Positions 1 to 8,633 of a stretch of DNA of 8,633 nucleotides are shown here, piece by piece. The position numbers and the translations under genes were made by a program. Source of the stretch: a virus (lineage: Duplodnaviria; Heunggongvirae; Uroviricota; Caudoviricetes); IMG/VR virus record IMGVR_UViG_2541047745_000004, positions 1 to 8,633 of that record. The stretch is one strand, 5' to 3'. The notes under the pieces were generated by a model that saw only the letters and a program-made list of their open reading frames with translations, was not told the DNA's origin and did not search any database. Within the stretch, counting starts at the first letter, position 1, and every line of letters begins with the position of its first letter.

Positions 1-462
1 ATGCTGGGTGATTGTTTCCCTCCTGATTTTAAGGCTAATTTTAGTCGTGAAAGAGGTATATCACCCGGTGATGTATTGTATCTTCATTGTGATTTTACGA
101 CCCCACCTAAAGTAAAATATATGGTGGTTGTTTGCTGTGAACCTCTTTTAGTTCTTCTAATAAATTCAGATATAAATGAATTTATTAAGAGAAACAATGA
201 TCTTATGGCTTGTCAGGTCGAAATTAATAGAGAGGACCATGATTTTCTTAAATGGGACTCATTTGTTAATTGCATTGAGGCTCATGCTGCTTTCGATCTT
301 GAAATTATTAAAGAGAAAATAGCCATCCAATATGGCGACGTGCTAAAAGGTCGCATTACAGATCATTGTATGAGACAAGTTCGATGTGCAGTTGAGATAT
401 CTAAAATCATGGTTAAACGGCATAAAAAACTGATACTCGCTGCTCTTCAACATTATGAATAA
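1..462 (+). CDS. hypothetical AT-rich accessory protein (153 aa as seen; start may lie upstream of the window)
   Basis: Open frame from position 1 to TAA at 460-462. Sampled stretches are about 30-38% GC versus about 50% or more in the neighbouring phage genes. Opposite strand to the adjacent early-left operon. Ends inside a perfect 12-bp hairpin. ATG at 1-3 coincides with the window edge, so the 5' end is unverified. No family recognised. Confidence 0.5.
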   Translation: MLGDCFPPDFKANFSRERGISPGDVLYLHCDFTTPPKVKYMVVVCCEPLLVLLINSDINEFIKRNNDLMACQVEINREDHDFLKWDSFVNCIEAHAAFDLEIIKEKIAIQYGDVLKGRITDHCMRQVRCAVEISKIMVKRHKKLILAALQHYE

Positions 463-487
463 ACCCACCTTTGGATGGGTTTATTCA
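456..487. terminator. hairpin between convergent genes, possible shared/bidirectional terminator
   Basis: Perfect inverted repeat TGAATAAACCCA (456-467) / TGGGTTTATTCA (476-487) with an 8-nt loop. It overlaps the TAA of ORF 1..462 and ends 9 nt before the stop (496-498) of the convergent minus-strand gene. Plus-strand 3' flank ATATTCTATTT is moderately U-rich; the minus-strand flank is not. Confidence 0.45.
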
Positions 488-495
488 TATTCTAT

Positions 496-768
496 TTAAA
501 TGAGCCTTTGTTTATGGGTTCTGACCCTTTCCCACTCAGCACGCCCTTCTTCTCGCCTTTTGTCTATGTATTCCGCAAGATCCTGAATATTGATGCAACG
601 TTTTGCTTTTTGTGATGTGCCGATGCGATATGTTGGAACGGGCAACTTACAAGCGTTTGCTTTTGCTTCTGCCGTGGCTGGACTCATGCCAAAGTACTTT
701 TGGCTAACTGCTGAGAGTTCAATGTTAGGGGTATTGAATTCAGCCATCAGTAAAAACAAGGTGTTCAT
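496..768 (-). CDS. small DNA-binding protein, PrtN/excisionase-like (about 90 aa)
   Basis: ORF track gives 496..795. I prefer ATG at 768 (MNTLFLLMAEF...) because GGAG at 774-777 gives a 5-nt spacer; alternative ATGs at 780 and 795. The segment ...KLPVPTYRIGTSQKAKRCINIQDLAEYIDKRREEG... resembles phage PrtN/excisionase-type proteins as I recall them. Family call is tentative. Confidence 0.45.
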   Translation of the reverse strand: MNTLFLLMAEFNTPNIELSAVSQKYFGMSPATAEAKANACKLPVPTYRIGTSQKAKRCINIQDLAEYIDKRREEGRAEWERVRTHKQRLI

Positions 769-804
769 AATTTTCTCCATCAAAACCGGCTGCACCCGGA
801 AAAA

Positions 805-1377
805 TCATAATTCTGTGCTGGTGGCAGGAATTAATTTCTGCCAGATAGCTGAAACATATTTTGCCTGATGACGAGCATCAGCCAGGGCGTTGTGCCGTTC
901 GCCATCGAAAGGCATGTCCATTTTGGGGGCGAATCCGATGGAACGCCCAAGCGTAACGATCGTGCGTACATCGTGATCATTCCAGTACGCCCATGGGCAG
1001 ATTTGTCCTGCTCGTTCATAAGCTCCGCGTAAAATTACGTTGTCGAAGGTGGCCCCGTTACCCCAAACTTTTAAATATTTCGTATTGCCTGCGTGCCGAT
1101 TAATGAAATGGCTCAGTTCAGAGAGTGCATCGCTGATCGACAAAGTATCATCAATACAGATTGCAGCTCGTGCTTCAGGGCTTTGTTTCAACCACCACAG
1201 GATGGTATCGCCGTCAGGTGTGGCCCCTTGCTCCATAGCACTGTCCAGGCTGACAACCGCATAGAATTCTTGTCCGATGTCTCCGGTTTCTGGAGTGAAG
1301 AACACCGCGCCAATGGAAACGATCGGTGCATCCTTATTTTTCCCCATCGTCTCAAGGTCGATCATTAAGTTGTTCAT
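805..1377 (-). CDS. DnaQ-like DEDDh 3'-5' exonuclease
   Basis: ORF track gives 805..1380 (GTG). ATG at 1377-1375 has AGGAGG (1385-1390) 7 nt upstream and overlaps the TGA of the upstream gene (TGATG). Three exonuclease motifs are visible in the translation: Exo I IDLET, Exo II WGNGATFDNV, Exo III HNALADARH. Confidence 0.75.
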   Translation of the reverse strand: MNNLMIDLETMGKNKDAPIVSIGAVFFTPETGDIGQEFYAVVSLDSAMEQGATPDGDTILWWLKQSPEARAAICIDDTLSISDALSELSHFINRHAGNTKYLKVWGNGATFDNVILRGAYERAGQICPWAYWNDHDVRTIVTLGRSIGFAPKMDMPFDGERHNALADARHQAKYVSAIWQKLIPATSTEL

Positions 1378-1913
1378 CACTTCACCTCCTGCGGCGGTTC
1401 CGGTAGCCGCATCCAGTGGGTTACATTGCGGCTCTGTGTTTCGAAGAACTCCTCACCATTGCGGACAACATCAAAAAACTCACTGTCTCGATATTGCGCA
1501 TAAAGAACGAATGCGCCATCACATAAAATAATTACGTGCTGACCATCATCTGGCATTCGCTCACTACAGCTTATCCAGCCAGCCGGAATTACCGGAGAGC
1601 AGGTTGACGTTTCCGAGATTTCCCGAAAGTTTCCGGCCTGAGGCATGGCGGCGCGGTGACACCAGATAATCCAGCCAATCGCCATATCCCATGCCATGTA
1701 TTCGCCATCGCCATTTTTTGCCCTGCGGCGATCTACAGATTCCCCGAAACGCTTCTCCATAAATAATTCATAGGCTGCCCGTTCATCCGATACTGCTTCC
1801 AGTGATGCCAGCGCGATTTCATAAGCCAGGCGCTCAATATTGTCTCGCACGTCCAGGCTGCCGATTCGCTCTCTGATTTCTTTAATCAGTTCTTTGTCGG
1901 TAAAAGTAGTCAT
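1377..1913 (-). CDS. phage protein with C-terminal DUF551-like domain (178 aa)
   Basis: ATG at 1913-1911 preceded by GAGGA at 7-nt spacing, 3 nt after the upstream stop. C-terminal ...GWISCSERMPDDG...THWMRLPEPP matches the DUF551 pattern from memory. Confidence 0.6.
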   Translation of the reverse strand: MTTFTDKELIKEIRERIGSLDVRDNIERLAYEIALASLEAVSDERAAYELFMEKRFGESVDRRRAKNGDGEYMAWDMAIGWIIWCHRAAMPQAGNFREISETSTCSPVIPAGWISCSERMPDDGQHVIILCDGAFVLYAQYRDSEFFDVVRNGEEFFETQSRNVTHWMRLPEPPQEVK

Positions 1914-1916
1914 GTG

Positions 1917-2204
1917 TTAGTCCTCATCCACTTCAACGCCATCTTTCAGCGTGATGCCGTGCCAATCATCAGCCCAACTGGTTAGCCCTGGCGCATCAAT
2001 GCTAGGCATATAGACGCTTGCAGTGTGGTAGCCCTTATCGTTATCAATGCTGGCAACGTGCTCGCCGTTGTATGCGCTCAGCGTGTCCAGGACGCTATAA
2101 AACTTTCCTCCGGCTGCCCTGAAATCCTTTACAGCCTTCACAAGGCGATTCCACGCTTTTTCCTGTTCTGGCGTCAGGTCGATTAATTCCTGCAAAGTTG
2201 CCAT
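1917..2204 (-). CDS. small acidic phage protein (95 aa), function unknown
   Basis: ORF track gives 1917..2246, but the in-frame ATG at 2204-2202 (MATLQELIDL...) has AAGGAGAG at 2210-2217 and sits 1 nt after the TGA (2206-2208) of the upstream gene. About 17 D/E versus 8 K/R, with an acidic C-terminus ...VEVDED. Confidence 0.55.
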   Translation of the reverse strand: MATLQELIDLTPEQEKAWNRLVKAVKDFRAAGGKFYSVLDTLSAYNGEHVASIDNDKGYHTASVYMPSIDAPGLTSWADDWHGITLKDGVEVDED

Positions 2205-2205
2205 A

Positions 2206-2892
2206 TCACTCTCCTTTGATGCGAATGCCAGCGGCGCGGGAATCATTCCATCGCTTTACTTCTTCACGAATTACGTCAATGCATTCTTTCGAATCCATTA
2301 GGTAATCTTCATCAAAAAGCCTTTCCTGTTCGTTTTCTATCGCAACAATGATTGCTTCAACTAACTTTTGTGCCTGAGAACCACTTTCTAACTCTGCAAT
2401 GCGCTTCTCTGCGGCTTCCAGCTTCTCGCGCATATCGTCAACGTACTCGACCAGAGATCCGCCAGCAGGAATTTCGCACTCCTCGACCAGTTGGAAGTAG
2501 ATATCAGCTGCGGCCCGTGTGTTGCTATGCCTAGCGTCGCCCATCTCACCTTCACGAAGAGCATCGCGTTCGGCGGTAAGATTGGCTATTTTGCTGTCTT
2601 TGCCTTCCAGCTCAACGCGCAGCTTCCCAACCGTAAGCGCAATCTCCTCGTTCTCCTGGTCGCGGCGTTTGATGTATTGCTGGTTTCTTTCCCGTTCATC
2701 CAGCAGTGCCAGCACGGTTTCTGGTCCGGTCAGAAATTTGAAGGCGTTGAGCGCATCAATATCCACACCGTAATCTTTAAGTTCCTGTTCACTTAACAAA
2801 TCATCATCAACTGGCAACATTAACAGGCGATCCATTGCCGGAATTGCACGCTCTGCCTCCTCACGCAGTGCCTGATAGTCAATCTTGCTCAC
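2206..2892 (-). CDS. Ea22-like (ead/Ea22 family) coiled-coil protein, 228 aa
   Basis: GTG start at 2892-2890 with AGGAGG (2899-2904) 6 nt upstream, overlapping the TGA of the upstream gene (GTGA). Segments ...LLDERERNQQYIKRRDQENEEIALTVGKLRVELE... and the C-terminus ...AGIRIKGE match lambda Ea22 as I remember it. Confidence 0.7.
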   Translation of the reverse strand: MSKIDYQALREEAERAIPAMDRLLMLPVDDDLLSEQELKDYGVDIDALNAFKFLTGPETVLALLDERERNQQYIKRRDQENEEIALTVGKLRVELEGKDSKIANLTAERDALREGEMGDARHSNTRAAADIYFQLVEECEIPAGGSLVEYVDDMREKLEAAEKRIAELESGSQAQKLVEAIIVAIENEQERLFDEDYLMDSKECIDVIREEVKRWNDSRAAGIRIKGE

Positions 2893-3443
2893 TGGTTGCC
2901 TCCTTTGCGAAGCTGTTCAGCAATACTTACGCATATCTCTGCGCCTCTAATCAGCCCCGGAACGTTCTTGTTTGGCCCAACTTCACCATCAACAAAATCA
3001 ATCATCGCGTTACGAGCCATATTCACCCCCTGCGCCCGCACTTCAGCCAGGCATTTGCGAAACTCGGAAACGTACTGTTCGACGCTCATTCCCCAGCTAA
3101 GTGGACATTCATTGAATGTTTCGCCTTCGTGCTCTTCATCAGGTAGCTCTTTGGTAAAGAACTCACGTTCAATGGCGTGGAGTGTGTCAGCAAAACGACG
3201 TAAGTTACTCAAACCTGTCGTAATGGAGAATTCAGGAGCATCACATCCGACGCCCATCTGCTGATAAACGGCGGTTTTGAAGGCCTTAAGCCCCGCATTC
3301 TCCGCCGCAAGCGCCGAAATCTTAGCCTCCGCTTCAGCAAATTTACGCACCAGATATTCAGCATTTGTTTCGTTAACCTTTAAATCTCGTGGGATGCATT
3401 TCCCGCGAAGAAACCCTTCCATTTCGAAAACATTCATGCGCAT
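2889..3443 (-). CDS. hypothetical early protein (182-184 aa)
   Basis: Start is either ATG 3443 (GGAG about 8 nt upstream) or ATG 3437, which overlaps the TGA of the YfdR-like gene (ATGA). Its stop overlaps the GTG of the Ea22-like gene. No family recognised. Occupies the position of yfdS/yfdT in CPS-53. Confidence 0.55.
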   Translation of the reverse strand: MRMNVFEMEGFLRGKCIPRDLKVNETNAEYLVRKFAEAEAKISALAAENAGLKAFKTAVYQQMGVGCDAPEFSITTGLSNLRRFADTLHAIEREFFTKELPDEEHEGETFNECPLSWGMSVEQYVSEFRKCLAEVRAQGVNMARNAMIDFVDGEVGPNKNVPGLIRGAEICVSIAEQLRKGGNQ

Positions 3444-3970
3444 TTGCGTAACTCCGATAACTCGTTAAAACGTTCCATAAACATCCCGTAGGCATGGCCT
3501 GGCGACAGTGGAATCACTTTGAACATCTCTGTTGCCGGGATACCTTCCAGTACAGGCCAGAAAGAGCCATCATCAAGCCCGAGATCGCGGCGTTCGGTTG
3601 CCAGCATGATGAGATCGGCATATTTCACGGGCGTGCTCATAACCGGGGGTAACCCGTATTTCTCACGGATTACGGCGTCTATTTTTTCTTCCATCCGTTT
3701 ATAGTCAGGAAGAAGGCGTTTCAGTGGCGCGGGGATGTCCTGACAATACGCTTCTGTTGCATCATGCATTAACGCTTCGAAAGCAAACTCCTGCGGTACC
3801 AGTTGGCTGCAAAGCACCGCATGTTGGGCGACGCTGTAGAAGTGTGAAAGATGTCCTGCAAAGCGACAGATATTTGAAAGGGAAACCGCGATATCGTTAA
3901 TCACGATGTCGTCTTTATTTATCCTGTCATAATAAAAATGCTTCCCGGAAAAAGTTTTAATAAATGACAT
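3434..3970 (-). CDS. yfdR: HD-domain phosphohydrolase, YfdR-like (YfbR/YfdR 5'-nucleotidase family)
   Basis: ORF track gives 3434..3997. ATG at 3970-3968 (MSFIKTFSGKHFYYD...) has GGAG 7 nt upstream. HD signature ...FAGHLSHFYSVAQHAV...LMHDATEAY.... N-terminus and length agree with my recollection of E. coli K-12 CPS-53 YfdR. Confidence 0.8.
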   Translation of the reverse strand: MSFIKTFSGKHFYYDRINKDDIVINDIAVSLSNICRFAGHLSHFYSVAQHAVLCSQLVPQEFAFEALMHDATEAYCQDIPAPLKRLLPDYKRMEEKIDAVIREKYGLPPVMSTPVKYADLIMLATERRDLGLDDGSFWPVLEGIPATEMFKVIPLSPGHAYGMFMERFNELSELRKCA

Positions 3971-4063
3971 TTTGTTCTCCACGTATATGCGCTGCACCGC
4001 GCTGAATTCTGGTAAAAGGAAGCCCTCACCATCCGGTGATTATTGAGTTAATTACGTTTCCAT

Positions 4064-4085
4064 AAATGCCCCCGCAGGGGCATTT
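4064..4085 (-). terminator. intra-operon hairpin between yfdQ and yfdR (attenuator- or terminator-like)
   Basis: Perfect 9-bp inverted repeat AAATGCCCC (4064-4072) / GGGGCATTT (4077-4085) with a 4-nt loop, 13 nt downstream of the yfdQ stop. A/T flanks on both sides but no long U-tract. Confidence 0.35.
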
Positions 4086-4097
4086 GCAGTAATGAAA

Positions 4098-4922
4098 TCA
4101 GGCGGTGAAAGTACCAATAAAGGTTTCGACTTTGCTGTCTTTGAATTTCTCAACAAGCAGATCACGAAATTCGTTAGCCATTTCTTCCTGCACCGCTTCC
4201 AGCTGAATAATGCGCAGAACCAGTACAGGACGATCGCCAGTGATAATGCTGAGGCGTAATTTAAATGGACGTTCTTTCAGACCTTCAAACGGAACGCATT
4301 TATATTCAAATGCCACTGGCATAATATCTTTGGTCTTCGCTTCGACAGACTCCATCAGGGAGCGTTTGCCGCTGAAGTCATTATCTTCAAAATCAGCGGT
4401 CTGGTTTGCTTCAATCGTGATTTTACGGACAGCCGCAGCCGCTTTTGTTGCCTGAATAGCGTCACCATTAGCATCAAAGCCCACAAGGTAGTCGGCCCAG
4501 TCTTCAATCCATTCTGCCAGTGACTTCTGGGAGTTACGCTCGCCGTTAACAGACAACAGAGCAGAGAACGGTGCTGTCTTTTTCAGTTTGAGAGTGGCGG
4601 TGTTATCTGCGTGACCTGGTTCATCAATAGTACCCAGGTTAAGCACACTGACGGCTCGCATATTATCGGCATCGATAAAGCAGCGGGTGCCTTCATCTGC
4701 AAGATCTTTAGAATAACGGGTAAAGTCATCGATGCTGGCAGTGGAAAGCGCACCACGGAAACGGAAGCGATTTAAATTAAATTTTTCCAGATCATGAATG
4801 CGGAAATTCTCAGGCAATGCCACAGCATCGGCACCAATCTTACTGATAATTTCATTAACACCCTGAGCAGAAATAAGGGCATGGATTTGATTAATTGCGG
4901 TTGCGTCTAAGTTCTGAGACAT
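4098..4922 (-). CDS. yfdQ: YfdQ-family protein (DUF2303), 274 aa
   Basis: ATG at 4922-4920 with GAGGA 6 nt upstream. Length and position immediately upstream of the yfdR-like gene match CPS-53 YfdQ as I recall. Not verified by search. Confidence 0.7.
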
Positions 4923-4987
4923 AATAAGTCCTCACTATATAAAGATATTCAGTGATGAGATAAATAATCGGTTAATTAAGAACGATA

Positions 4988-5350
4988 TTAATGACCTGCT
5001 GCGCGTAGTTTTCCGTCAGGTTCACCGGCAAGAGTCAGTAATTGTCCCTGGTCTTCCTGCAGAATAGTCAGACGACCACCGCGATTGACATACATCGGCG
5101 TTTCGGTGGTGTCTTCTTCGGAAATTTTCCCGCGGTTAGTCGGTCGAACATATGAGAGTTTGTGTTTGATTTTTACACGGTTCTCATCAAATGGTTCGAT
5201 TTCCAGGTTGAGTGAGACCTTACCTTTGGTTTTCGTGTTCATCACACCGGAAGCGACTTCACTGAGAACTGCGCCGATTTTGGTTTCAAATACGCCGCCG
5301 TCCAGCTCCCCGATAAATGCCTGCACATCAGTACTGCGTTCGCTAGCCAT
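4988..5350 (-). CDS. first early-left gene, hypothetical 120-aa protein (positional equivalent of yfdP)
   Basis: ORF track gives 4988..5668 (226 aa), but the extra N-terminal 106 codons are R/P/G-rich junk-like sequence inside the GC-rich region. ATG at 5350-5348 (MASERSTDVQ...) has GAGGAG 7 nt upstream. Confidence 0.6.
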   Translation of the reverse strand: MASERSTDVQAFIGELDGGVFETKIGAVLSEVASGVMNTKTKGKVSLNLEIEPFDENRVKIKHKLSYVRPTNRGKISEEDTTETPMYVNRGGRLTILQEDQGQLLTLAGEPDGKLRAAGH

Positions 5351-5818
5351 TTTGCTGCTCCTCATCATATCGACCCTGCAAGGTCGGTTGGTTTCTCCAC
5401 AAAACAGAGAAGAACACCTGCGGTGGCAGCCGCCCGGATGGATTGGGTTATGAGCCCGTCGTCCGGTGATGCTCTTCTCTGTTTTGTAAAAAGAGCGGTA
5501 CCAGCCGGAAGCAAGGGTACAAGCTGGTACCGCCAGGACTACACACAGCATAAAGTTGTGGTGCCGGGTGCCTCCCGGTGCCTGGCGAAGGTTGCACACC
5601 AGGCGGGTGGGTATCCACAGAAGGTCGACTGTCAGCCTCAACCTTAACCCGCGTGCGCTGAGCCGCATTCACCACAACGCTAAGGATTCTCTCTGGTTGA
5701 AAATACTTAGCTGTTATGTGCCTGCTTTTAGCCACATCAGGCGAGGTGGGCCTGGTTATTCCCCAACAACAAGGATTCGGCTAATCTGGATGACTCTGTT
5801 CTTAGAGGGGATAATTAA
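5351..5818. other. GC-rich, ORF-free, highly self-complementary intergenic element (candidate structured RNA or regulatory leader)
   Basis: About 58-60% GC in sampled stretches. Only low-complexity junk-like ORFs. Multiple inverted repeats: 5399-5415 vs 5471-5487, 5495-5505 vs 5523-5533, hairpin 5559-5581, 5588-5594 vs 5639-5645. Function not established. Confidence 0.4.
5399..5487. repeat. long inverted repeat (15 contiguous bp of 17-nt arms) with 55-nt spacer
   Basis: ACAAAACAGAGAAGAAC (5399-5415) versus GCTCTTCTCTGTTTTGT (5471-5487). The reverse complement of the right arm is ACAAAACAGAGAAGAGC, giving one mismatch. Confidence 0.8.
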
Positions 5819-6331
5819 ATGGGAGCGATTTATGTTAAACGTTTGATTCTGTCGGTAGCACTGATAATACCGATAGCATCCAATGCTTCTGATGCTTTGA
5901 ACCAGCCGAGCAGTAGTCTAAATGATGGTGTTGAGACTTTTTTTATTTCCTGCTTTGATATGCCTCAGGAAACAACTACTGATATGGACGCTTGTCAGAG
6001 AGTTCAGTTAGCTCAGGTTAGTTGGGTTAAGAATAAGTATTCGGTGGCCGCCCTGAATCGTTTGAAACAAGACAACAAGGATGATCCACAGCGTCTGCAG
6101 GAATTAACTGCTTCTTTTAACGCGGAAAGTGAAGCTTGGACAGAATTAATTGAGAAAGCGTCAAAGTCCGTCCAGGTTGATTATGCAGGAGGAACTATAG
6201 CTGGCACTGCAGTTGCATCACGTCAAATTGGTCTTCTGGAATTACAATCCCACGATATCTGGGAGCACTGGCTACGATTCGAGGACTCAACTCCTCCTCT
6301 TTTGCCAGAACCAAAGTTCAAATCTGAGTAA
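5819..6331 (+). CDS. secreted/periplasmic moron protein (170 aa) with Sec-type signal peptide
   Basis: ATG at 5819 with GAGGGG 8 nt upstream. N-terminus MGAIYVKRLILSVALIIPIASNA/SDA has a basic n-region, a hydrophobic core and an S-N-A cleavage motif, with no lipobox Cys. A sampled stretch is about 43% GC. Own intrinsic terminator downstream; convergent with cI. Possible LprI/DUF1311-like periplasmic protein, but that is a weak unverified recollection. Confidence 0.65.
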   Translation: MGAIYVKRLILSVALIIPIASNASDALNQPSSSLNDGVETFFISCFDMPQETTTDMDACQRVQLAQVSWVKNKYSVAALNRLKQDNKDDPQRLQELTASFNAESEAWTELIEKASKSVQVDYAGGTIAGTAVASRQIGLLELQSHDIWEHWLRFEDSTPPLLPEPKFKSE

Positions 6332-6340
6332 TAAGTCATC

Positions 6341-6357
6341 CAGATTGTTAAAGAGCG
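6341..6357 (-). promoter_or_regulatory. boxA-like antitermination motif on the leftward transcript
   Basis: Minus strand reads CGCTCTTTAACAATCTG. The core GCTCTTTAACAAT (13 nt) is identical to the E. coli rrn boxA core (UGCUCUUUAACAAU...) and fits the lambdoid boxA consensus CGCUCUU(U)A. It directly follows a hairpin (antisense of the moron terminator) and lies about 180 nt downstream of the operator repeats. Confidence 0.45.
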
Positions 6358-6358
6358 A

Positions 6359-6381
6359 AGCGTCCTATAGGGCGCTTTTTT
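6359..6381 (+). terminator. rho-independent terminator of the 5819..6331 gene
   Basis: Stem AGCGTCC (6359-6365) / GGGCGCT (6370-6376) with one G-U pair, loop TATA, followed by a T run at 6376-6381, about 28 nt after the stop codon. Confidence 0.65.
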
Positions 6382-6555: not shown

Positions 6556-6592
6556 TGCGAGATGTGCAAGCAATATTTTGCGAGATGTGCAA
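6556..6592. promoter_or_regulatory. oL-like operator pair (tandem direct repeats) with candidate pL
   Basis: Perfect 14-bp direct repeat TGCGAGATGTGCAA at 6556-6569 and 6579-6592, sharing 11 of 14 positions with TGCGTGATAAGCAA at 7361-7374 in the cI/cro intergenic region. Candidate leftward promoter on the minus strand: -35 TTGCAC (6564-6569), 17-bp spacer, -10 TATCTT (6541-6546). Promoter assignment is tentative. Confidence 0.5.
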
Positions 6593-7339: not shown

Positions 7340-7436
7340 GCGTTTATTACATTTCTTTATTGCGTGATAAGCAAATCAACTTGCGCAAAACACTTGCGTG
7401 AAATAACATGCATAACGCGCAATATTTGGAGGGTAT
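7340..7436. promoter_or_regulatory. divergent switch region (oR operators, pRM and pR)
   Basis: TTGCG half-sites at 7360, 7381 and 7394, with GCAA/CGCAA at 7371-7374, 7384-7388 and 7418-7422. Candidate pRM on the minus strand: -35 TTGCTT (7369-7374), 17-bp spacer, -10 TGTAAT (7346-7351), placing the start about at the cI ATG with no Shine-Dalgarno sequence (leaderless, as for lambda cI). Candidate pR: -35 TTGCGC (7381-7386), -10 TAACAT (7404-7409), weaker. Cro RBS GGAGGG at 7428-7433. Confidence 0.55.
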
Positions 7437-7697
7437 ATGCAATCACCATTACGAAATGTGCGTAAGGCGCATGGTTTCACTTTGCAGCATGTTGCTGCGG
7501 GTGTTCAAGTCAATCCAGCGACGTTGAGTCGTATTGAGAGGCTGGAACAGATTCCATCTATCGAGCTTGCAGAACGTTTAGCCAATTTTTTTAAGGGTGA
7601 AATCAGCGAAATGCAGATTCTTTATCCGGCACGTTTTCAATCTAGCCAAAACCAGAATGGGTTTAAACCACAGGAACAGGAGGTGAACCGTGGGTAA
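7437..7697 (+). CDS. Cro-like HTH regulator (86 aa)
   Basis: ATG 7437 after GGAGGG. HTH ...FTLQHVAAGVQVNPATLSRIER.... Divergent from cI. Overlaps the next gene by 8 nt. Confidence 0.65.
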   Translation: MQSPLRNVRKAHGFTLQHVAAGVQVNPATLSRIERLEQIPSIELAERLANFFKGEISEMQILYPARFQSSQNQNGFKPQEQEVNRG

Positions 7698-8241
7698 GCA
7701 TCACTGGAAAGTAGACAAACAGCCTGAGTGGTTCGTGAAAGCTGTCAGAAAAACTATCGCAGCGTTGCCTGGGGGTTACGCTGAAGCTGCTGACTGGCTG
7801 GATGTAACAGAGAACGCATTATTTAACCGCCTTCGTGCCGATGGCGATCAGATTTTCCCGCTGGGATGGGCAATGGTTTTACAGCGTGCTGCTGGCACTC
7901 ACTACATTGCGGATGCTGTCGCACAGTCTGCTGGTGGGGTGTTTGTATCGCTTCCTGAAATTGAGGAAGTAGAGAACGCAGATATAAACCAGCGCCTGCT
8001 GGAAGTCATCGAACAGATCGGGAGTTACTCAAAGCAGATTCGTTCGGCAATCGAAGATGGGGTAGTGGAGCCACACGAGCAGACAGCAATTAATGATGAG
8101 TTGTATCTGTCAATTTCGAAGCTCCAGGAGCATGCAGCACTGGTCTACAAAATCTTTTGCGCTCCAGAAAAGAGTGACGCCCGCGAGTGTGCAGCTCCGG
8201 GCGTCGTGGCGTTTTGTGTCTGTGGAGAAACTAACGCATGA
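7690..8241 (+). CDS. CII-like phage regulatory protein (CP76-family-like, tentative), 183 aa
   Basis: GTG 7690 with AGGAGG (7678-7683) 6 nt upstream. Position immediately after cro. Overall resemblance to phage regulatory CII (CP76) family proteins from memory; family assignment unverified. Confidence 0.55.
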   Translation: MGKHHWKVDKQPEWFVKAVRKTIAALPGGYAEAADWLDVTENALFNRLRADGDQIFPLGWAMVLQRAAGTHYIADAVAQSAGGVFVSLPEIEEVENADINQRLLEVIEQIGSYSKQIRSAIEDGVVEPHEQTAINDELYLSISKLQEHAALVYKIFCAPEKSDARECAAPGVVAFCVCGETNA

Positions 8242-8633
8242 ACAGTTTAACGGCAAATAACCGTTTGTCGCAACAGCTGGTGGTCAGCGTCGCTGAACAC
8301 CTGTTGTTACGGCATGAATGCAGATTACCAAATCACCTGGCTGTAAGTAACCACAGAGAACTTTACCTGACTGTGGGGGGCGAGTTGTGCAGGAACTTAA
8401 CCGCTGGTTTCGTGACGGAAGAGGACTTTATGTTCATGTTATTCGTTGGGAGCCAGAAACACAGCGCGTTATCTATCTTCGCAAAGACTACCCGCATGAG
8501 TGCTTTAGTCCTTTGTGGAAATTCAGGCGTGATTTTGTTGAGTGTGAAGGACCACCAGCACATTGATTCTGCCATTCCGGGACGTTACACTGTTCAGGCA
8601 CCTTATAAAGCGGGTGCCGGGATTGGCGTCCTG
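8238..8633 (+). CDS. hypothetical protein, open at window end; possibly frameshifted at a G6 tract (see findings)
   Basis: ATG 8238 overlaps the TGA of the CII-like gene (ATGA). The frame has no stop to position 8633, which is why the ORF track omits it. The first 47 codons look protein-like and the remainder looks less convincing. Product unknown. Confidence 0.45.
   Translation, partial: MNSLTANNRLSQQLVVSVAEHLLLRHECRLPNHLAVSNHRELYLTVGGELCRNLTAGFVTEEDFMFMLFVGSQKHSALSIFAKTTRMSALVLCGNSGVILLSVKDHQHIDSAIPGRYTVQAPYKAGAGIGVL

Follow-up and report, generated by a model that had tools for sequence, protein, structure and literature searches.

One of the closest described relatives of the locus analysed here is the yfdPQRST cluster of prophage CPS-53 (KplE1) in Escherichia coli K-12. 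K-12 YfdR binds domain I of DnaA in a Phe46-dependent manner and competes with DiaA and DnaB (PMC4776307). In multicopy, yfdQ and yfdR together with either yfdS or yfdT form the minimal set that inhibits replication initiation (Noguchi and Katayama 2016, PMC4776307). Initiation is unaffected when yfdQRST is deleted, and according to the authors the inhibition may be an artefact of overexpression (PMC4776307). The YfdR-DnaA results are restated in PMC12122000. YfdR is also described as a structural homologue of YfbR with nucleotidase activity, its nucleotide affinities being much below those of YfbR (PMC4776307). SirA uses the surface of Bacillus subtilis DnaA (Phe49) that is equivalent to the Phe46 target of YfdR, and lambda P is another phage protein inhibiting host initiation via DnaA (PMC4776307). 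Lambda P, however, is a helicase loader that binds DnaA domain III, whereas YfdR is an HD-domain protein that needs YfdQ and a third protein in vivo; lambda P, SirA and Dps are comparable to YfdR in working only, with no sequence relationship. The early-left operons of lambdoid phages fairly often carry a yfdP/yfdQ/yfbR-like cluster (PMC12315714). In the Ea22 variants of lambda and Stx phages, a short N-terminus is followed by a coiled coil and then by an exchangeable C-terminal domain (CTD) that differs between variants, and their evolution is mosaic (PMC10834534).

Results

Gene string and immunity region

The window, which is the whole stretch of 8,633 nt analysed, is an ordinary, previously annotated part of a lambda-like prophage of E. 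coli, and it is 100% identical to the E. coli genome scaffold GCA_000457405.1. In our best explanation of the locus, positions 2206-4922 probably belong to the early genes that run leftward in an E. coli lambdoid prophage of the SfV/mEp460 type. An identical gene string with equal gene lengths was found in eight independent E. coli or metagenome contigs, with 99.6-100% nucleotide identity. The four minus-strand ORFs described for this part by the sequence-only reading (4098-4922, 3434-3997, 2889-3443, and 2206-2892) were all recovered, with 274, 187 (from GTG), 184, and 228 aa, respectively. Pfam and PHROG matches and recurrence in the contigs identify them as real genes and not chance ORFs, and the PHROG matches are full length for all four. 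The finding of yfdQ-yfdR is itself already known, as these are RefSeq-annotated genes whose link to DnaA has been in print since 2016. The names used in RefSeq are YfdQ family protein, yfdR 5'-deoxynucleotidase, and eae-like and ead/Ea22-like proteins. The features of the window are as follows.

496-795, minus strand, PrtN-family protein in excisionase position (Pfam PF11112, E 4e-23)
805-1380, minus strand, 3'-5' exonuclease (Rv2179c-like / DEDDh; Pfam PF16473, E 5e-75)
1377-1913, minus strand, DUF551 protein of 178 aa, true counterpart of K-12 YfdT in its N-terminal 90 aa (Pfam DUF551, E 9e-21, residues 112-175)
1917-2204, minus strand, 95-aa protein (phrog_2821), true start ATG 2204, 1 nt after the stop of the Ea22-like gene
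2206-2892, minus strand, Ead/Ea22-family protein of 228 aa (Pfam PF13935 Ead_Ea22, E 5e-27)
2889-3443, minus strand, 184-aa "eae-like domain" mosaic protein (full-length match to phrog_614)
3434-3970, minus strand, yfdR, 178-aa HD-domain protein annotated as 5'-deoxynucleotidase (174/178 identical to K-12 YfdR, gapless)
4064-4085, minus strand, 9-bp GC-rich hairpin AAAUGCCCC-UGCG-GGGGCAUUU (read from the sequence)
4098-4922, minus strand, yfdQ, 274 aa, DUF2303 / YfdQ family (271/274 identical to K-12 YfdQ)
4988-5350, minus strand, yfdP homologue of 120 aa, first core gene (119/120 identical to K-12 YfdP; phrog_204)
6556-6592, no strand assigned, OL-like operators, two copies of the 14-nt repeat TGCGAGATGTGCAA 23 nt apart (repeat family D1)

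The PrtN-family gene (496-795) forms the end of the leftward gene string, and its mEp460 homologue carries an excisionase annotation. The exonuclease gene (805-1380) is a downstream member of the same string as yfdP-yfdQ-yfdR. To the right of the string lies an immunity region with genes for CI (S24), Cro-like, and CII-like proteins and with operator-like repeats. The repeat pair at 6556-6592 is located immediately left of the cI terminator, a third copy of the D1 family is present at 7361-7374 in the cI-cro intergenic region, and the pair may mark a putative early promoter directed leftward. The stretch from these operators to yfdP holds a converging moron, the terminator hairpin of that moron (6357-6378), and, at about 5490-5530, a stem-loop that resembles a terminator and has a T-run. 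Neither tRNA genes nor a Red/RecT/Erf-type recombination gene were found in the window, and PADLOC defence annotation gave no match to its yfd, Eae, or Ea22 genes.

The yfdP-yfdQ-yfdR core

The first of two units is the conserved yfdP-yfdQ-yfdR core (4988-3434), which hardly differs from that of K-12 CPS-53 or of plaque-forming phages. YfdP was called as a 120-aa protein with PF27127 (YfdP) in eight contigs, and the 226-aa ORF 4988-5668 of the mechanical listing was rejected as an over-extension of this gene. YfdQ matches Pfam PF10065 (DUF2303) over positions 2-269 of the 269-position profile (E 2e-91, 306.3 bits, gathering cut-off 26.6) and is a member of the YfdQ family, whose proteins are mostly 273-276 aa long across Enterobacterales. 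PDB entry 9o7m ("YfdQ Protein", 36 chains) represents a solved YfdQ homologue. No YfdP or YfdR partner chain was detectable in this entry by sequence, and no paper behind it was found in the literature for 9O7M, DUF2303, or recent YfdQ work. The YfdQ fold gave no functional clue, and neither fold nor family searches tied YfdQ to annealing proteins or nucleases.

The start of yfdR is most likely ATG 3970, with GGAGAA 5 nt upstream, and not GTG 3997; the 178-aa form is annotated alike in K-12, SfV, and mEp460, and the GTG-start ORF 3434-3997 gives 187 aa. In the pairwise alignment that had been proposed as a check, YfdQ and YfdR were 99% and 98% identical to the K-12 proteins, respectively. YfdR differs from its K-12 counterpart by four conservative substitutions (K/R, N/K, A/S, D/E), matches phrog_318 with E 3e-111, and is a full-length orthologue of K-12 YfdR. 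The HD-domain signature read from its sequence is indeed there: H50, H69-D70, and D129 (178-aa numbering) are intact and identical in K-12 YfdR, with H50 and D129 named metal ligands by inspection. PDB 2gz4 ("Hypothetical protein Atu1052") matches YfdR with E 2e-13. HD 68-69 of YfbR, the HD-domain 5'-deoxynucleotidase of E. coli, aligns with YfdR 69-70, but the two proteins are only 21% identical. YfdR scored 24.2 bits with Pfam PF12917 (YfbR-like; cut-off 25.9) and 19.8 bits with the NCBIfam 5'-deoxynucleotidase equivalog PRK03826 (cut-off 122), and on these scores it is a distant HD relative and not a YfbR equivalog. Because the HD motif is intact, YfdR probably keeps a weak 5'-deoxynucleotidase activity.

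The translational coupling proposed by the sequence-only reading agrees with the overlaps of yfdR with the 184-aa gene and of the 184-aa gene with the Ea22-like gene, whereas yfdQ and yfdR are not coupled and are separated by a 127-nt spacer. In the ATGA overlap (minus strand, 3437-3434), the TGA stop of yfdR lies over the second ATG of the 184-aa ORF, the first ATG of which is at 3443, as in the annotation of K-12 yfdS. The GTGA overlap is at 2892-2889, with GGAGG in front. The hairpin 4064-4085 is situated just past the yfdQ stop within the spacer, is not followed by a strong U-run, and appears in both the MFE and the centroid fold. The spacer was rejected as a structured RNA, as its whole fold is no better than that of shuffles (z -1.4) and no Rfam match was obtained.

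When presence was counted at at least 80% coverage of yfdQ-yfdR, the core was found in 2454 of 5426 complete E. coli genomes (45%) and in 46 phage records, with 95-99% identity in both sets.

The accessory mosaic region

The second unit is a block-mosaic accessory region of the Eae/Ea22/DUF551 type, with genes for the 184-aa, 228-aa Ea22-like, 95-aa, and DUF551 proteins. [quoted passage not shown] Alignment divides the 184-aa protein into a YfdS-type block of the first 45 aa, an invariant core of about 95 aa, a variable segment, and an RKGGNQ tail. It is 87% identical to YfdS over residues 1-45 only and unrelated beyond; phrog_583 matches only its residues 1-46, and in the third gene the DNA similarity to K-12 stops at 3340. 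In K-12 YfdS, phrog_583 covers every position (120/120), and a DUF551 domain is present. The 184-aa protein had no Pfam match to DUF551 and falls outside the YfdS family, which is built of the N-terminal block and a DUF551-type C-terminus in about 120 aa. The exact protein (P0121) is present on 27 contigs and is called "eae-like domain protein" in NCBI sources, and its AlphaFold2 model (pLDDT 50) was too poor for a fold search.

Elsewhere, the DNA of 2893-3323 forms the 3' portion of genes of the ead/Ea22-like and eae-like kinds. The N-terminal block of the third gene occurs also downstream of RecT-Gp157-DUF2737, without yfdR nearby, and in another locus (L017) the same prophage end carries a cIII-kil-RecT-Gp157 module in place of yfdPQR. 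Since the third gene is a block mosaic, the DNA for its C-terminal part is found elsewhere, and its N-terminal block occurs without yfdR, the supposed module consists of two units. This reading survived its test, as the N-terminal block is not confined to the neighbourhood of yfdR. The block was also considered as a YfdR-specific adaptor, a role weakened by its occurrence behind RecT-type modules.

The 228-aa protein is a member of the Ead/Ea22 family, with 95.5 bits for PF13935 (cut-off 27) over profile positions 1-139 of 139. Its similarity to lambda Ea22 is confined to residues 1-102 (54% identity), with one 40-residue stretch nearly identical, and it is composed of a lambda-Ea22-like N-terminus, the start of a coiled coil, and an unrelated C-terminal part. 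No alignment to a lambda-type Ea22 CTD past residue 102 and no PDB sequence match were found. The protein fits the architecture and mosaic pattern reported for Ea22 (PMC10834534), with a C-terminus unrelated to the solved lambda CTD. It has no similarity to YfdT (best BLASTP E-value 1.5). The P22-type Eae/Ead proteins also belong to the comparison class of the 184-aa and 228-aa proteins. The next gene was called as 95 aa in eight contigs; phrog_2821 covers residues 15-109 of the 109-aa ORF, and AAAGGAG is present upstream of ATG 2204.

The N-terminal 90 aa of the 1377-1913 protein are 78% identical to YfdT, both proteins end with QEVK, and yfdT is 83% identical in nucleotide sequence to 1662-1913 of the window. 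This YfdT homologue sits outside 2206-4922, two genes past the Ea22-like gene. In its sequence, K-12 YfdT looks like the N-terminal domain with the shared QEVK tail, and SfV has the same 101-aa form. The possibility that ypdJ is a frameshifted DUF551 remnant of yfdT was rejected, as tblastn downstream of K-12 yfdT revealed no DUF551-like frame; in that search, the 178-aa protein otherwise matched only the C-terminal end of yfdS, weakly, and the torI frame, where the match was not significant.

Comparison with CPS-53, SfV, and mEp460

In K-12 CPS-53, yfdP, yfdQ, and yfdR are orthologous and collinear to those of the window, with 98-99% protein identity, and CPS-53 is 96.8% identical in DNA to 3340-5369 of the window. 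The 10-nt overlap of yfdR with the next gene is also shared. The K-12 third gene has DUF551, whereas the window gene has the eae-like core, the first 45 residues being common to both. The parallel in gene order to yfdQRST drawn earlier thus covers yfdQ and yfdR and, in the third gene, no more than the first 45 codons. The Ea22-like and 95-aa genes are missing from CPS-53, and the YfdT counterpart of the window (1377-1913) has a DUF551 domain, whereas K-12 YfdT does not. At the integration/excision end, a PrtN-family protein is present in the window and TorI in K-12. The window keeps an intact CI/Cro/CII immunity region, whereas the similarity to K-12 ends 19 nt upstream of yfdP.

SfV orf32-orf28 correspond to K-12 YfdP/Q/R/S/T with identical lengths (120/274/178/120/101 aa) and 96-99% identity, and gp35-gp32 of mEp460 likewise match K-12 YfdP/Q/R/S. 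Both phages have the yfdP-yfdQ-yfdR core as in the window, with about 97% DNA identity, and both, unlike the window, carry the 120-aa YfdS allele. After the core, mEp460 (gp35-gp25) keeps the gene order of the window (Ea22-like, DUF551, exonuclease, PrtN-type excisionase), but its Ea22-like allele is another one (184 aa) and two additional small genes are present. In SfV, yfdT is followed directly by xis-int.

Discussion

The binding of DnaA by YfdR and the inhibition of initiation by the cluster, which the sequence-only reading put forward, agree with the published work (PMC4776307). Applied to this prophage, derepression would lead to accumulation of YfdR, which would bind DnaA domain I at the Phe46 surface, compete there with DiaA and DnaB, and lower initiation at oriC; YfdQ and a third protein would be needed alongside YfdR in vivo. 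Because of the near-identity (98-99%) to the K-12 proteins, it is plausible that YfdQ and YfdR of the window dampen host replication on induction. We infer that the window copy acts as the K-12 alleles do and matters in phage development, and the genes may have a role in host takeover. The third component differs here: homology to YfdS is limited to 45 residues, with DUF551 replaced, and the YfdT-like part of 90 aa (78% identity) is fused to DUF551. Identity, gene structure, mosaic boundaries, and distribution were observed on the window itself, and the DnaA effects on K-12 alleles, in multicopy only.

According to the sequence-only reading, the locus is an undegraded ancestral yfdQRST module, and K-12 YfdS and YfdT would be shortened remnants of the 184-aa and 228-aa proteins. 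It was right that the proteins downstream of yfdR are larger (184 and 228 aa against 120 aa for YfdS and 101 aa for YfdT); moreover, YfdS and the 184-aa protein are alike in their first 45 residues, and everything that lay upstream of yfdP is gone from the cryptic prophage CPS-53. Yet each K-12 gene equals in length its counterpart in functional phage SfV, with 96-99% identity between the two sets, the 120-aa YfdS and 101-aa YfdT homologues of SfV being 96% identical to K-12 and the 120-aa YfdS homologue of mEp460 97%. YfdS is a full-length phrog_583 protein (120/120) with a DUF551 domain of its own, to which the 184-aa protein is unrelated past residue 45, and the Ea22-like protein is unlike YfdT, whose homologue is ORF 1377-1913. 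No lengthwise alignment of YfdS or YfdT with inner segments of the 184-aa or 228-aa protein was obtained, and the ancestral origin is thereby refuted and almost certainly wrong. It is rather unlikely that yfdP-yfdQ-yfdR is mainly a DNA/nucleotide metabolism module replacing a Rec module, with YfdR as a dNMP phosphatase, YfdQ as a large oligomer that acts on DNA or nucleotides, and a DnaA effect that merely accompanies overexpression. The lack of a Red/RecT/Erf-type gene in the window, the cIII-kil-RecT-Gp157 module standing in place of yfdPQR at the same prophage end in L017, and the presence of the cluster in Rec-less phages such as LLS and ST64B (PMC12315714) are consistent with it, as are the kept HD motif and 5'-deoxynucleotidase annotation of YfdR, the 36 copies of a YfdQ homologue in one PDB entry, and the artefact allowed by the authors of the DnaA study (PMC4776307). 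However, some Rec-less phages lack the cluster and some phages with a Rec module carry it, among them ArgO145 (PMC12315714), YfdQ could not be tied to annealing proteins or nucleases by fold or family, and purified YfdR binds DnaA specifically via Phe46 and has nucleotide affinities far lower than those of YfbR (PMC4776307).

A main role of these genes in the lysogen or in the lysis-lysogeny decision, and not in lytic host takeover, is improbable. [quoted passage not shown] Ea22 of those phages has its N-terminal and coiled-coil part in common with the 228-aa protein, but the C-terminal part of the latter differs from lambda Ea22. K-12 deletions of yfdQ and yfdS are more sensitive to H2O2, and that of yfdQ also to MMS (Wang 2010 and Rooney 2009, as cited in PMC4776307). 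Nearly half of the complete E. coli genomes have retained the core with 95-99% identity, cryptic prophages included; recent horizontal spread of a phage module, however, also yields high conservation. By its position, the string lies left of cI and the operator-like repeats, where early-left genes are normally silent in the lysogen. We also regard as improbable that yfdP-yfdQ-yfdR is a self-contained cassette for control of host replication, placed in the Rec-module slot of active lambdoid phages and working with interchangeable third partners. There, an N-terminal block of about 38 residues (EMxGFLxGKCxPRDLKVNETNAEYLVRKF) would cooperate with YfdQ and YfdR, swappable C-terminal domains would tune the outcome, and YfdQ would be a large homo-oligomeric scaffold (36 copies in PDB 9o7m). 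This is weakened because the same N-terminal block occurs in prophages without yfdR nearby. The preferred explanation is a conserved core followed by an accessory mosaic in the leftward early string of an SfV/mEp460-type prophage.

As a discovery the locus has little weight, and the useful outcome is a correction. Because the K-12 yfdPQRST genes match functional phage SfV gene for gene, they are not a decayed remnant. What the 2016 study treated as a "cluster" extends over two units that are shuffled independently, and its "third component" varies from phage to phage. For the natural role of YfdR-DnaA binding, an inducible prophage such as the present one, SfV, or mEp460 would be better suited than multicopy plasmids.

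Gene Content and Translational Arrangement

The window is the early region of a lambdoid prophage, and all of its 8633 bases are 100% identical to a scaffold of assembly GCA_000457405.1. The NCBI name of a protein identical to the 184-aa product cites E. coli UMEA 3426-1. In seven further contigs, from E. coli and gut metagenomes, the gene string is found again with ORFs of equal length and 99.6-99.9% identity; the genes are therefore intact and circulating. The interval under study (2206-4922) holds yfdQ, yfdR, a 184-aa gene, and an Ea22-like gene.

Annotated genes of the window
496-795, minus strand, PrtN-family protein in the excisionase position
805-1380, minus strand, DEDDh-type 3'-5' exonuclease
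1377-1913, minus strand, DUF551 gene
1917-2204, minus strand, 95-aa gene
2206-2892, minus strand, Ead/Ea22-family gene, 228 aa (Pfam E 5e-27)
2889-3443, minus strand, 184-aa gene
3434-3970, minus strand, yfdR, 178 aa
4098-4922, minus strand, yfdQ, 274 aa (Pfam DUF2303 E 2e-91)
4988-5350, minus strand, yfdP homologue, 120 aa
6647-7339, minus strand, CI-type repressor (S24), right of the yfd string
7437-7697, Cro-like HTH protein, right of the yfd string
7690-8241, CII/CP76-like protein, right of the yfd string

The start codon of yfdR is almost certainly ATG 3970 and not GTG 3997, with GGAGAA upstream and a product of 178 aa likewise in K-12 and in phages SfV and mEp460. The two overlaps on which the sequence-only reading based translational coupling were confirmed. 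On the minus strand, the stop codon of yfdR and the second ATG of the 184-aa ORF overlap (ATGA, 3437-3434); the first ATG of this ORF, at 3443, gives the 10-nt overlap annotated for yfdR/yfdS in K-12. The 184-aa gene and the Ea22-like gene overlap at GTGA (2892-2889), which is preceded by GGAGG. However, yfdQ and yfdR are uncoupled, as 127 nt lie between them, which include a GC-rich hairpin of 9 bp (4064-4085).

PDB entry 9o7m, "YfdQ Protein", consists of 36 chains of one sequence and aligns to residues 16-273 of the window YfdQ (E 3e-44). No paper on this structure was found in the literature.

Putative Regulatory Sites and RNAs, and Window Ends

A 14-nt operator-like sequence is present in three copies. 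Two copies of TGCGAGATGTGCAA, separated by 23 nt, lie at 6556-6592 to the left of the cI terminator; the related TGCGTGATAAGCAA lies in the cI-cro intergenic region (7361-7374). These probably serve as OL and OR in this type of immunity. Between the OL-like operators and yfdP, on the opposite strand, a 170-aa protein with hydrophobic N-terminus and a weak Pfam match to LprI (lysozyme inhibitor) is encoded (5819-6331, plus strand). Its gene is bracketed by a 24-nt inverted repeat (5783-5806, 6323-6346), has a strong terminator at 6357-6378, and resembles a moron; of the contigs fetched, only the source scaffold contains it. Candidate promoters for yfdP-yfdR are the OL-like site near 6556-6592 and a match near 5811-5838, and terminator-like hairpins at 6357-6378 and about 5490-5530 lie between the OL-like site and yfdP.

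Upstream of yfdP, a full-length match to the STnc100 prophage sRNA family (Rfam RF02076) was recognized at 5486-5708 on the minus strand, with 45.4 bits (1.6 under the gathering score) and E 2e-7. Its last part is a stem-loop with a T-run that resembles a terminator (about 5490-5530). STnc100 is related to the PasD sRNAs of Stx phages (2026 preprint). The mechanical 226-aa ORF at 4988-5668 is an over-extension, which this element explains. The STnc100-like terminator is separated from the start of yfdP by a region with an inverted repeat (5399-5423/5463-5487), whose 25-nt arms are 84% complementary and 39 nt apart. The repeat may form a hairpin for RNA processing or attenuation; similarity to K-12 stops short of it, at 5369.

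At the left end, a 153-aa ORF (1-462, plus strand) has a low G+C content of about 35% and no family match in Pfam, NCBIfam, PHROGs, or PADLOC. It adjoins a SocA_Panacea-domain gene just outside the window in all related contigs and may be the toxin gene of a toxin-antitoxin pair of the Panacea type, located at the prophage end close to zur and a fragment of dusA. At the right end, positions 1-36 of the 77-position model of isrK, an Hfq-binding sRNA family, were matched at 8598-8633 (plus strand, E 6e-4), where the window cuts the match off.

Comparison with K-12 and Functional Phages

The gene order had been read as parallel to yfdQRST of CPS-53 (KplE1), a cryptic prophage of E. coli K-12. This holds for YfdQ (271/274 residues identical, length equal) and YfdR (174/178), and YfdP is identical in 119 of 120 residues. 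The assignment of genes to yfdS and yfdT was wrong: the 184-aa protein resembles YfdS in residues 1-45 only (87%), and the Ea22-like protein has no similarity to YfdT (best E 1.5). At the DNA level, CPS-53 is 96.8% identical to window 3340-5369, beginning 19 nt upstream of yfdP and ending about 100 nt inside yfdS, and the sole further K-12 match is yfdT with 1662-1913 (83%). The ORF at 1377-1913, two genes past the interval, is 78% identical to YfdT over 90 residues; from this and the DNA match, its N-terminal 90 residues are therefore the YfdT counterpart. YfdT (101 aa) of K-12 (11874-12179 of its locus) and SfV corresponds to these 90 residues followed by QEVK, the C-terminal end of both proteins, as though the DUF551 domain had either been deleted in frame or never been acquired. 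In K-12 the DUF551 domain is instead placed on YfdS, which matches its PHROG over 120/120 positions.

The larger window proteins had been taken for an undegraded ancestral module, which was not borne out. The functional phage SfV (orf32-orf28) has genes of exactly the K-12 lengths (120, 274, 178, 120, and 101 aa) with 96-99% identity, and mEp460 gp35-gp32 likewise. As YfdS is also full length, the larger window proteins are different alleles, not ancestors.

Mosaic Structure of the Third and Fourth Genes

A database entry identical to the 184-aa protein exists, which one source calls "eae-like domain protein"; it occurs in 27 contigs and is listed in 75 index blocks. An alignment of this protein with its relatives resolves an N-terminal block that comes in several types (YfdS, Eae, and Ea22), an optional 28-residue coiled-coil insert, a core of about 95 residues with almost no variation, a segment that varies, and a conserved RKGGNQ tail whose coding sequence supplies the ribosome-binding site of the following gene. 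The core and tail DNA (2893-3323) also occurs elsewhere, as the 3' portion of ead/Ea22-like and eae-like genes, including plasmid-borne ones. Breakpoints against three other alleles of the gene following yfdR lie at 3321-3340. In the 228-aa protein, the N-terminus and the start of the coiled coil match those of lambda Ea22 (54% over 102 residues, with a near-identical stretch of 40), but the C-terminal domain of lambda Ea22 has no counterpart in it; the same mosaic pattern is published for Ea22 variants (PMC10834534). It is concluded that the interval consists of two units, a conserved yfdP-yfdQ-yfdR core and an Eae/Ea22/DUF551 accessory region, the latter equivalent to the lambda exo-xis region.

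Distribution

Of 5426 complete E. coli genomes, 2454 carried the yfdQ-yfdR core at a coverage of at least 80% and 95-99% identity, some of them at up to six places. The core was also found in 46 phage records, including SfV, SfIV, mEp460, and Stx2a- and Stx2c-converting phages. A 2025 paper (PMC12315714) describes a yfdP/yfdQ/yfbR-like cluster as fairly common in lambdoid early-left operons, with no known function for yfdQ and yfdP. The feature is already known and ordinary.

Possible Role in Host Replication

Replication inhibition by the cluster and binding of YfdR to DnaA, as stated in the sequence-only reading, agree with Noguchi and Katayama 2016 (PMC4776307). In that study, yfdQRST was isolated because it suppressed hda-185 in multicopy, yfdQ and yfdR together with yfdS or yfdT formed the minimal set, and extracts oversupplied with the proteins inhibited oriC replication in vitro. 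Deletion left initiation unchanged, and the effect may be an artefact of overexpression; the authors suggested that an ancestral phage might have used these genes as lambda uses P. With 98-99% identity, the window YfdQ and YfdR should act like the K-12 proteins; the third partner, however, differs from yfdS/yfdT of the K-12 minimal set. After derepression the yfd genes would be expressed, and YfdR bound to DnaA would lower host initiation.

The main rival to this account is a role of the core in DNA or nucleotide metabolism, in the slot given to a Rec module by other phages. Some prophages that lack yfdR have the YfdS-type N-terminal block as well, there downstream of cIII-kil-RecT-Gp157-DUF2737. 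One of them, in E. coli GCA_018995065.1, shares the prophage end of window 1-1380 (exonuclease, PrtN-family protein, 153-aa ORF, Panacea-domain gene, and DUF2713), joined to a cIII-kil-RecT-Gp157 early-left region in place of yfdP-yfdQ-yfdR, and thus the RecT-type and yfdPQR modules are alternatives in one phage lineage. The HD signature claimed for YfdR is present, YfdR scores under the Pfam and NCBIfam cut-offs for YfbR-type enzymes, and its reported nucleotide affinity is much below that of YfbR (PMC4776307). A lesser rival is that the genes serve lysogeny or stress tolerance. Lowering of host initiation through YfdR and DnaA is favoured with modest confidence, and the identity of the genes is held with high confidence. 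The sequence-only reading is partly supported: its observation was confirmed, and its interpretation was right on YfdQ, YfdR, and the literature and wrong on ancestry and the yfdS/yfdT correspondence. What the K-12 CPS-53 has lost, and the window copy has kept, is the regulatory neighbourhood of immunity genes and operator-like repeats.
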